Origin: a virus
Direction: 5' to 3' (one strand)
Length of the DNA stretch: 44,426 nt
Virus record (IMG/VR): IMGVR_UViG_3300043313_000403
Span: 1 to 44,426 of that record
The stretch's first letter is position 1; every line of letters starts with the position of its first letter. Below the pieces are notes generated by a model. The model ran no database searches. It was given only the letters and a program-made list of their open reading frames with translations, and was not told the DNA's origin. Below, piece after piece: positions 12,681-13,334 of the stretch. The translations under genes and the position numbers were made by a program.

Positions 12681-13334
12681 ATGAAGAAGCTACTGTTTGC
12701 GACCACTGCCTTAATTGCATTATCGGCCGCACCGGCCAAGGCTGATTTCTACGCCACCAGCTACACCGTCCTCGGCGCGCAGAACGTCACACTACTGACG
12801 CCGAAATTCGAGAACGTACAGGCGGGTGAGATCCGCCTCCAGGGACCGAGCGGCTCGGTCGATGTCTGGTGCCTCGACGTGTTCGACGGCATTAACCTTC
12901 CCTACGACTACACCGTCCAGACCTTCAATGCCGGCGACAGCCGCCCCGGCATCGCGCCGTTAAACTCCGGTCAGGTTCGCCAGATCGCGGCGCTTATGTT
13001 CATCGGTGACCACGTAGCTGGCATCGACAAGGCCGGAATCCAGCTCGCTATCTGGAAGGCGGAATATGGCGCAGCGTTCTCGTCCCTCGCCAGCGGATCT
13101 CTGCTGGCCGACGAAAATCTGTACTTCTCGCAGACCTCGTTCGGCGGTCTTTACGACCGTGCTGACCTGACGCTGACCGTCTACACCGACGCCCCGATCA
13201 ATCCGTCGCAGGCGTTCGGCACTGCTACCGTTGCGGCGGTTCCGGAGCCTGCGACGTGGGCTATGATGATCCTTGGGTTCTTGGGCGTTGGTGGTCTGGC
13301 CATGCGCAAGAAGGGTCAGCTGCGGCTTGCCTGA
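12681..13334 (+). CDS. Secreted protein with PEPxxWA-CTERM (exosortase-type) sorting signal
   Basis: N-terminal signal peptide [21 protein letters not shown]. The C-terminus [27 protein letters not shown] has the PEP motif, a hydrophobic helix and a basic cluster. GGAGAA RBS. Confidence 0.85.
   Translation: [217 protein letters not shown]

Follow-up and report, generated by a model that had tools for sequence, protein, structure and literature searches.

A phage cargo protein with a predicted thioester-type fold and a PEP-CTERM sorting tail, carried in a mobile three-part cassette

An open reading frame (ORF) of 217 amino acids (aa) is located at positions 12681-13334 of the viral genome record IMGVR_UViG_3300043313_000403 (44,426 nt; this whole stretch of DNA is termed the window). 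Its product consists of a signal peptide, a passenger that is predicted from fold and motifs to be similar to thioester domains (TEDs), and a C-terminal PEP-CTERM sorting signal of the PEPxxWA type. The TED gene serves as cargo in a three-part mobile cassette made up of a structured leader, the cargo ORF and an ORF for a 32-aa membrane protein. The ORF probably encodes a minimal single-domain thioester adhesin that would be made during infection and handed to the PEP-CTERM/exosortase pathway of the host, with the likely effect of masking receptors and excluding other phages. The TED passenger on a PEPxxWA tail, its recurrence in phages, and the cassette with two unannotated companions (leader and mini-protein) are new. 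An initial annotation of this DNA, made from the sequence, missed the TED passenger, the conserved structured leader, and the location of a GC-rich hairpin inside the conserved 32-aa ORF.

The cargo ORF is on the + strand and has an ATG start codon with an AGGAG Shine-Dalgarno sequence 8 nt upstream. The initial annotation had described a phage-encoded protein with a signal peptide, and this is borne out by the 217-aa ORF and by inspection of its N-terminal region. Residues 1-21 (positions 12681-12743, + strand) begin with MKK, with two lysines, followed by a hydrophobic core and an A-x-A sequence (AKA, then D), and a signal peptidase I cut is predicted after A21. This alanine is the sole invariant column in an alignment of 64 sequences (A1). 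The segment has no lipobox cysteine, and an AF2 model displays a helix at residues 3-15.

The sorting signal encompasses residues 187-211 of 217 (positions 13239-13313) and has a VPEP motif, a transmembrane helix and an RKK cluster. The AF2 model places a helix at residues 190-212 in this tail. Hidden Markov models (HMMs), which had been proposed earlier as a check of the PEPxxWA/PEP-CTERM assignment, all score the tail above their curated cut-offs: NF035944, PEPxxWA-CTERM, of NCBIfam (42.1 bits, cut-off 35, E = 5.9e-11), TIGR02595, PEP-CTERM (20.3 bits, cut-off 16), and Pfam PF07589 (25.4 bits, cut-off 20.7). By HMM the protein belongs to the PEP-CTERM domain families. The sorting signal had been given as the exact C-terminus; residues 187-211 are as written, but six residues, GQLRLA, follow, so that signal, extension and stop codon together occupy positions 13239-13334 (+ strand).

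The GQLRLA end (positions 13314-13331) corresponds to a conserved (G)xx(F/L)R(L/F/V)(A/V) motif, which is found past the basic cluster in most family members with variants such as GQLRLA, AFRLA and AFRFA. The motif is outside the 24-position PEPxxWA-CTERM model. This conserved xFRLA/LRLA-type ending may be an extra recognition or retention element.

The passenger (residues 22-186, positions 12744-13238, + strand) was assigned by its AF2 fold, by Foldseek and by motifs. The AF2 model from the homologue alignment has a pLDDT of 89.8 and a pTM of 0.81. A Foldseek search of the PDB with this model gave eight top matches, all of which are TEDs (probability 0.99-1.0), and the next match has an E-value above 0.1. 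The matches include CpTIE-TED (5A0G/5A0D, E = 4e-5 to 6e-4, probability 1.0) and PnTIE-TED (5A0N, E = 1.5e-3), and the model shares with them the TED layout, a beta-barrel combined with a subdomain of three helices.

TEDs are defined by a cysteine within the motif [YFL]CΦζ on a strand, by a helix motif TQxxΦW, and by a bond-forming glutamine in the last strand (PMC4450167, PMC6194298). The Cys and the bond-forming Gln are the only residues that are universally conserved in published TEDs (PMC4450167, PMC6194298). An alignment of homologues of the window protein shows three conserved blocks, VWCLD, xQLAIWxxEY and xSQAFG, and each has a counterpart among the TED motifs. The predicted thioester cysteine, C64 (motif VWCLD, codon 12870-12872, + strand), closes strand 58-64 of the AF2 model (VW-C64-L-D). 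Q121 and W125 of the motif IQ121LAIW125 (Q121 codon 13041-13043, + strand) are in helix 117-132, as in the TQxxΦW motif. The predicted thioester glutamine, Q177 (motif PSQAFG, codon 13209-13211, + strand), is directly before the last strand (179-184) and is 9 residues from the end of the domain. In CpTIE, Gln267 is 9 residues before Thr276, where the beta-strand subdomain ends.

In a diverse alignment (A3), in which the passengers are 19%-49% identical to that of the window, the invariant positions are C64, G109, Q121-L-A-I-W125, E128 and Q177. C64 is at least 90% conserved in alignments A1 and A5, and it is the sole cysteine of the whole 217-aa protein. The Pfam TED model (PF08341) scores in 8 of 64 and in 43 of 148 relatives; no other passenger family turns up repeatedly in them. 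One relative, P0065, exceeds the Pfam TED gathering score (24.7, threshold 22), and P0056, P0070 and P0083 score 19.5-20.8. A few homologues (P0024, P0039, P0051 and those of L016/L017) have a D-C-x-x-C sequence (DCSHCQL, DCPTCVL) in place of DRADLTL. This is a probable extra disulfide pair beside the last TED strands; these homologues have non-PEPxxWA tails.

The cargo had been considered unusual for a lytic phage. It is no isolated case but a recurrent, selected gene found in many phages, one of them temperate. About 20 close homologues (at least 42% identity) are on contigs of 35-59 kb, and none of this close clade is on a longer contig. The IMG/VR viral collection yielded eight further homologue loci. 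Phage gene content was checked and confirmed in L001-L003, L028, L041 and L042, and these have differing architectures: L001 has polymerase A, a VapE-type primase and an SNF2 helicase; L002, a temperate phage, encodes an integrase as well as an S24 repressor; L003 has a PIF1-like helicase; and L028 has ERF/YqaJ recombination genes. The cargo gene has neither a DNA nor a protein match among INPHARED phages, no match among PLSDB plasmids, no family in PHROGs, and no match at E ≤ 0.001 among the viral structures of BFVD.

More distant homologues (29%-36% identity) are cellular and are found in metagenome-assembled genomes (MAGs) of Alphaproteobacteria, i.e. Sphingomonadales, Methylobacteriaceae, Acetobacteraceae and unclassified lineages, as well as on cellular metagenome contigs. 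The initial annotation had taken the PEPxxWA variant as a clue to a host of the Sphingomonadales type; the MAGs with cellular homologues belong to several alphaproteobacterial orders, and the only named genome match with both this passenger and a PEPxxWA tail is a Methylobacteriaceae MAG. A contig scan with patterns of the close clade gave no relative; close homologues are therefore absent from the GTDB representative genomes.

A profile of the passenger by itself finds 1770 clusters (at 50% identity, E ≤ 1e-3). Among the best 150 of these, the Cys and the QxxΦW motifs are both kept in 133, and an exosortase-type tail is present in 125 of the 132 that are full-length. The same passenger is found with different tails: PEPxxWA, VPGPIAGAGLPG...RRRR, VPLPA-like and classical PEP. 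PEP-CTERM tails are more alike within one species than across species (Haft 2006). These tail swaps, together with the within-species likeness, speak for reading of the tail by machinery that is specific to the host.

Comparison of the window gene with that of L008 over codons 1-186 shows 17 synonymous and 3 non-synonymous differences, which gives a ratio of non-synonymous to synonymous rates (dN/dS) of 0.05. Other homologue pairs give 0.13-0.43. By these values the gene is functional in phages and under purifying selection. The identity to L008, 95%, is confined to positions 12678-13268 and the flanks are not collinear; the recombination breakpoint at 13268 falls within the PEP motif. The cargo gene has thus been exchanged between phages.

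In another explanation, the protein could be a decoy that saturates exosortase and stops the export of host matrix proteins, or the gene could be a recently captured hitch-hiker from a host, with no role in the phage. The GC content of the gene (0.607, and 0.75 at third codon positions) is well over that of the genome (0.539), which fits a foreign origin, and cellular homologues exist. However, the strong purifying selection on the passenger between phage copies, and the presence of the gene on about 20 phage-sized contigs of several phage architectures, speak against a hitch-hiker, and a decoy would not need the conserved catalytic Cys and Gln. Either explanation is very improbable.

Homing-endonuclease-like ORFs of the HNH_3/AP2 type adjoin cargo genes in L008 and L042. 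In L042 the ORF (positions 9421-9924, Pfam PF13392 and PF00847) is between two cargo genes. In L008 it is at approximately 6680-6830, with the start MKLFSFEDWELTQDTL..., just downstream of the TED gene where the 95% identity stops. Homing endonucleases may drive the spread of the cassette.

The first companion element is a leader of about 75 nt on the 5′ side of the start codon (positions 12607-12680, + strand), which overlaps the 3′ end of an upstream 76-aa ORF. It has an 8-bp helix of variable sequence, a GGUGC-AUUCC-GCACC hairpin and a mini-hairpin at the Shine-Dalgarno sequence. The outer stem is CACCGCAGAA/TTCTGCGGTG (positions 12608-12617 with 12636-12645, + strand), and its outer extension is partly supported. 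Hairpin 2 (GGTGC-AUUCC-GCACC, positions 12642-12656, + strand) competes with the outer stem for GGUG, and a small UCCU/AGGA hairpin (approximately 12658-12673, + strand) covers the Shine-Dalgarno sequence in the leader fold. Since the 5′ CACC and the 3′ arm of hairpin 2 can both pair with the same GGUG, two alternative states of the leader are suggested.

In an alignment of 14 leaders (A6), RNAalifold shows compensatory changes in 9 of 13 predicted pairs. Paired cells amount to 94%, compared with 27%-54% when the partners are slid, and the covariation score was reached in none of 500 shuffles. The minimum free energy of the window leader is -31.5 kcal/mol (z = -2.9). A covariance model (R1) gives 67.2 bits at positions 12607-12683 of the window, and its strong matches in 415 kb are found only directly upstream of PEPxxWA cargo genes, although most of these are training sequences. 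The leader is common to cassettes with different passengers and to one cellular copy (L006). No Rfam family matches it, and it is a candidate for a new cis-regulatory RNA. A sigma-54 -24/-12 element was another reading of hairpin 2, which was rejected: the spacing from GG to GC does not fit, and the compensatory changes indicate base-pairing.

The second companion is a 32-aa ORF with a TTG start (positions 13327-13425, + strand), which overlaps the cargo stop by 8 nt. The predicted protein, (M)PDWLPTMAAACLCAAAVGWIIAYILDSRNDT, has one hydrophobic helix and would cross the membrane once. The family consensus is MPxWxxxMAASCxAAxxxGWIxAWxxDEWxNR. A version of 31-33 aa is directly on the 3′ side of the TED gene in L001, L002, L003, L010 and L011, and on the 3′ side of an unrelated cargo in L028. 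Nucleotide differences between copies are concentrated at third codon positions (209, compared with 142 and 128 at the other two).

The 32-aa ORF was searched for by itself with a degenerate DNA pattern. This gave 3 matches in IMG/VR, all true, and 7 true matches plus 2 chance matches in metagenomes. In all 10 true matches, which are independent of one another, a PEPxxWA-CTERM gene ends within approximately 50-120 nt upstream. These upstream genes have a signal peptide wherever the 5′ end is on the contig, and they encode at least five unrelated passengers. The metagenome contigs that carry the module are short, and phage and cell origins are indistinguishable in them. No copy of the 32-aa ORF follows the VPGPIAGAGLPG-tailed genes, and none is present in the few cellular loci that were inspected. 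From this distribution, the ORF is linked to the type of tail and not to the TED.

The tail linkage bears on another explanation, that the tail is not cleaved and holds the TED at the inner membrane, where it would intercept the DNA-ejection machinery of phages or periplasmic targets in the manner of Sie/Imm-type exclusion proteins. Cleavage would fail either for want of an active PEP-CTERM regulon in the host or through a block on processing by the 32-aa protein. In hosts, sigma-54/PrsR as a rule controls the PEP-CTERM genes tightly (Haft 2006), and exosortase may be scarce in infection. The membrane mini-protein, tail-linked in phage and metagenome loci and absent in the few cellular loci, would fit such a role, and the tail combines a transmembrane helix with a basic stop-transfer cluster. 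On the other hand, the tail types vary by lineage, as exosortase-specific signals do, and an intact VPEP is kept, which a plain anchor would not need. An inner membrane anchor is improbable.

The GC-rich hairpin GAUGGCGGCGGCGUGC-loop-GCGCCGCCGCUGUC (positions 13347-13380, + strand) is inside the 32-aa ORF and has no U-tract. A 111-nt fold that includes it has -50.1 kcal/mol (z = -4.76), and none of 200 shuffles folds equally well. It was considered as an intrinsic terminator, but it was not called by the scan and lacks the U-tract. A sigma-70-like promoter, TTGACA-17-TAAAAT with an extended -10 TG (positions 13422-13450, + strand), has 11 of 12 consensus matches. Promoter-like sites number 2 in the 2.4 kb scanned, with a shuffle mean of 1.7, and the assignment is a consensus match only. 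This promoter is downstream of the cassette and probably drives the next genes. The gene had been described as flanked by a GC hairpin and a promoter; both exist, but both are downstream of it.

At least five other passenger types that are unrelated to the TED are present on phage or metagenome contigs. The signal peptides and PEPxxWA tails of these cargos are almost identical, and in many cases the leader and the 32-aa ORF are the same too. The P0061 type is found on 18 contigs, often adjoining a TED gene; its loci include L025-L027, L029, L033, L039, L041 (positions 10809-11489) and L042 (positions 8721-9407). The P0087 type is in L028 (positions 8001-8642). Further types are in L031 and L038, in L034 and L036, in L032 and in L035. 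Paired cargos are seen in L041 and L042 (TED with P0061 type) and in L028 (TED with P0087 type). The AF2 model of the P0061 type is all-beta, with low confidence (pLDDT 53.9). Unrelated passengers with the same leader, tail and small ORF suggest a diversifying cargo.

P0071 was considered as a lead to the cistern family of PEP-CTERM proteins (151 bits, E = 2.8e-44). It shares the signal peptide and the tail with the window protein, and its passenger differs. The same is true of P0061, P0086 and P0087, whose passengers are unrelated to that of the window. The window protein itself reaches 18 bits with the cistern model (NF033947, cut-off 60), and by its tail only.

A wider role for the cassette may be considered from these passengers. 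It would take over the exosortase of the host with swappable passengers (the TED and at least four others), inserted between a constant front part of leader and signal peptide and a constant rear part of PEPxxWA tail and mini-protein. The mini-protein would be an adaptor or modulator of the exosortase, and the TED would covalently cap the phage receptor or the exopolysaccharide layer to exclude competitors. The cassette has been found so far on phage contigs and on unassigned metagenome contigs, and we hold this full version to be rather unlikely.

For the favored single-domain adhesin, we infer the following course of events. The gene would be transcribed together with the replication genes, and the leader, through the hairpin that covers the Shine-Dalgarno sequence, would tune translation or mRNA stability. 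The protein would be exported by Sec and cleaved by signal peptidase after A21. On folding in the periplasm, C64 and Q177 would form an internal thioester autocatalytically. The exosortase of the host would read the VPEP/transmembrane helix/RKK tail, cut it off, and deliver the passenger to the cell surface or to the exopolysaccharide layer. There the thioester would react with a nucleophile, e.g. an amine on a protein or polysaccharide of the surface, to give a covalent attachment. The resulting surface coat would most likely mask or alter receptors, with the result that superinfecting phages would be excluded and progeny would not be lost on infected cells and debris. An exosortase-like multi-pass membrane ORF was not found in the phage genome; sorting would therefore depend on the enzyme of the host.

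Receptor masking and exclusion are favored because the gene would be expressed with the replication genes in an apparently lytic phage, because it is located between the repressor region and the integrase in the temperate L002, and because the passengers diversify on a fixed chassis. The region between repressor and integrase is typical for conversion and exclusion genes.

A functional parallel is Llp of phage T5, an early-expressed lipoprotein that blocks the receptor FhuA and whose exclusion role is proven (PMC9586334). It is also a small exported protein of a lytic phage that uses an envelope-sorting pathway of the host and changes the surface against superinfection and loss of progeny. This is an analogy of function only: Llp has no sequence or fold relation to the phage TED, it uses the Lol lipoprotein pathway, and its binding is non-covalent.

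Several observations weigh against the proposed reading. The TM-scores of the fold matches to TEDs are moderate (0.47-0.58, with a root mean square deviation of about 6.7 Å; 0.38-0.58 over all eight top matches). A tryptophan precedes C64 in place of Y/F/L (relatives have Y and F there), and a polar residue precedes Q177. The window protein has no match at E ≤ 10 to the TED models Pfam PF08341 and TIGR03934 (TQXA_dom). Sequence and profile searches of the PDB with the window protein, A1, P0065 and A5 did not reach a solved TED, and the link is thus visible only by fold, by motifs and by the Pfam matches of relatives. The 32-aa ORF is missing from L008, L009 and L025. The copy in the window is the most divergent one, with its TTG start, internal hairpin and DSRNDT end, and may be decaying. 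The suggested exclusion role is drawn from analogy and from the position of the gene only.

The lack of a Pfam TED match and the slight deviations in the motifs would fit a TED-like fold that has no thioester, i.e. a non-covalent binding module in which the conserved Cys and Gln are structural or take part in binding only. But C64 and Q177 are invariant polar residues across the divergent passengers of A3, a lone invariant cysteine in an exported protein is otherwise hard to account for, and published TEDs themselves have only the Cys and Gln in common. A module of this kind is therefore doubtful, and a passenger that is TED-like by fold and motifs, though not a member by HMM, is the preferred description.

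The closest known systems in structure are the class I TEDs of Gram-positive TIE adhesins (CpTIE-TED 5A0G, PnTIE-TED 5A0N, SfbI, Cpa). The passenger is predicted to have the same fold as these domains, and it shares with them a strand Cys in an aromatic-C-hydrophobic-hydrophilic sequence, a QxxΦW motif in the central helix and a Gln that starts the last strand. Like the phage protein, these adhesins are secreted and have a C-terminal sorting signal. They differ in that their anchor is of the LPXTG/sortase type, whereas that of the phage protein is of the Gram-negative PEP-CTERM/exosortase type. The phage protein also has no isopeptide or ester stalk domains, and the mature protein would be a single TED of about 165 aa. 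Other differences are the W before the Cys, the sub-threshold Pfam TED score and the phage origin. HMM scans of the window protein gave no LPXTG signal and no further domains. Since both the LPXTG signal and the stalk domains are absent, the phage protein is not a TIE protein; it would act in the manner of a class I TED and of a PEP-CTERM substrate.

In the literature searched, TEDs are described as exclusive to Gram-positive bacteria. No paper found there joins "thioester domain" with "PEP-CTERM", there is no mention of PEPxxWA, and nothing was found on a phage-borne PEP-CTERM cargo of this kind. Here the thioester "harpoon" chemistry, treated there as Gram-positive and sortase-anchored, appears to be joined to the exosortase pathway in about 1770 clusters and in many phages.

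PEP-CTERM substrates (Haft 2006; PepA of Zoogloea and an Aquincola protein) resemble the phage protein in having a signal peptide and a PEP motif/transmembrane helix/basic cluster tail. They too are small, have a passenger of an otherwise unknown family and occur in environmental bacteria with an outer membrane. The PEP-CTERM genes of Haft 2006 are single-gene units under sigma-54/PrsR control, whereas the phage gene is in an operon; the phage gene also comes with a structured leader of its own and is linked to a 32-aa membrane ORF, and its passenger can be identified as a TED. A further close system is an unnamed alphaproteobacterial cellular family of TED plus exosortase tail, with the same architecture and motifs as the window protein. 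These cellular copies are 29%-36% identical to it, and those examined do not have the 32-aa ORF.

The cellular family, a large one of small surface proteins, is one of the points in favor of a role in adhesion or aggregation. The exosortase-sorted, covalent TED would glue the infected cell or lysogen to its neighbors or to the exopolysaccharide matrix; the burst would then take place where susceptible cells are dense, or the lysogen would do better in a biofilm or floc. TEDs are adhesins, and a plasmid-borne TED adhesin aids cell contact in conjugation (PMC8092201). That plasmid protein is likewise a surface protein on a mobile genetic element and benefits the element; it differs in being a large multi-domain protein of Gram-positive bacteria, with a class II TED and Cna-type domains, on a conjugative plasmid, where it acts in donor-recipient contact. 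Floc formation in Zoogloea and Aquincola is described as needing PEP-CTERM proteins. However, it is less evident what a lytic phage whose latent period is short would gain, and the swapping of unrelated passengers on the same cassette is left unexplained. Adhesion is a possible role but not the likely one, and exclusion by receptor masking is preferred.

The cassette, as shared by many phages, suggests that these phages alter the surface of infected cells. If the wider role of the cassette is true, it would be the first covalent mechanism of superinfection exclusion, and a virus would for the first time be seen to use the exosortase pathway. Covalent, phage-driven remodelling of the surface would constitute a new type of exclusion or lysogenic conversion in soil Alphaproteobacteria. 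The exosortase/PEP-CTERM system is still little characterized by experiment with respect to the destination of substrates, their attachment and the reading of the tail. A substrate of 165 residues with a predicted built-in covalent trap, on a phage in which it can be knocked out, is a tractable probe of exosortase, and the thioester should tag its own target. Neither the leader nor the tail-linked 32-aa membrane protein is annotated, and each has clear associations that lend themselves to testing.

The window is a complete phage genome, circularly assembled or with direct terminal repeats, because positions 1-69 are an exact direct repeat of positions 44358-44426 (69 bp). It encodes a primase, DNA polymerase A, helicase, portal, terminase, capsid, scaffold, tail fibres and an ejection protein. 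The portal shares about 38%-40% identity with the portals of Ochrobactrum phage vB_OspP_OH and Sinorhizobium phage phiM5. No integrase or repressor is present among the 30 window ORFs scanned, which is compatible with a lytic lifestyle but is not proof of it. No tRNA genes were found in the window. The cargo gene is inside the rightward replication block and starts 2 nt past the stop codon of the preceding ORF, in agreement with its initial placement among replication genes.

The TED-carrying phage contig L042 (58 kb) has a GcrA-like protein (PF07750, positions 4093-4566) beside DNA methylases. GcrA is, to our knowledge, a cell-cycle regulator specific to Alphaproteobacteria. The GcrA-like protein would therefore favor Alphaproteobacteria as the host range of this group of phages.

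The ORF at positions 14420-15472 (+ strand) is a homolog of PurZ-type adenylosuccinate synthetase (phrog_1211, E = 1.7e-54). Its best PDB matches are the phage PurZ structures 6FM1 (5e-41) and 7ODX (4e-36), and cellular PurA is matched only at about 1e-16. Adenine may therefore be replaced by 2-aminoadenine in this phage (Z-genome). An adjoining 120-aa ORF (positions 15462-15824) has no PDB match.

Positions 12194-12293, inside a 67-aa ORF (12146-12349) of the window, match four to five separate sites in L008 (positions 4943-5733) with 73%-97% identity. A small gene or element is thus repeated upstream of the TED gene in L008.

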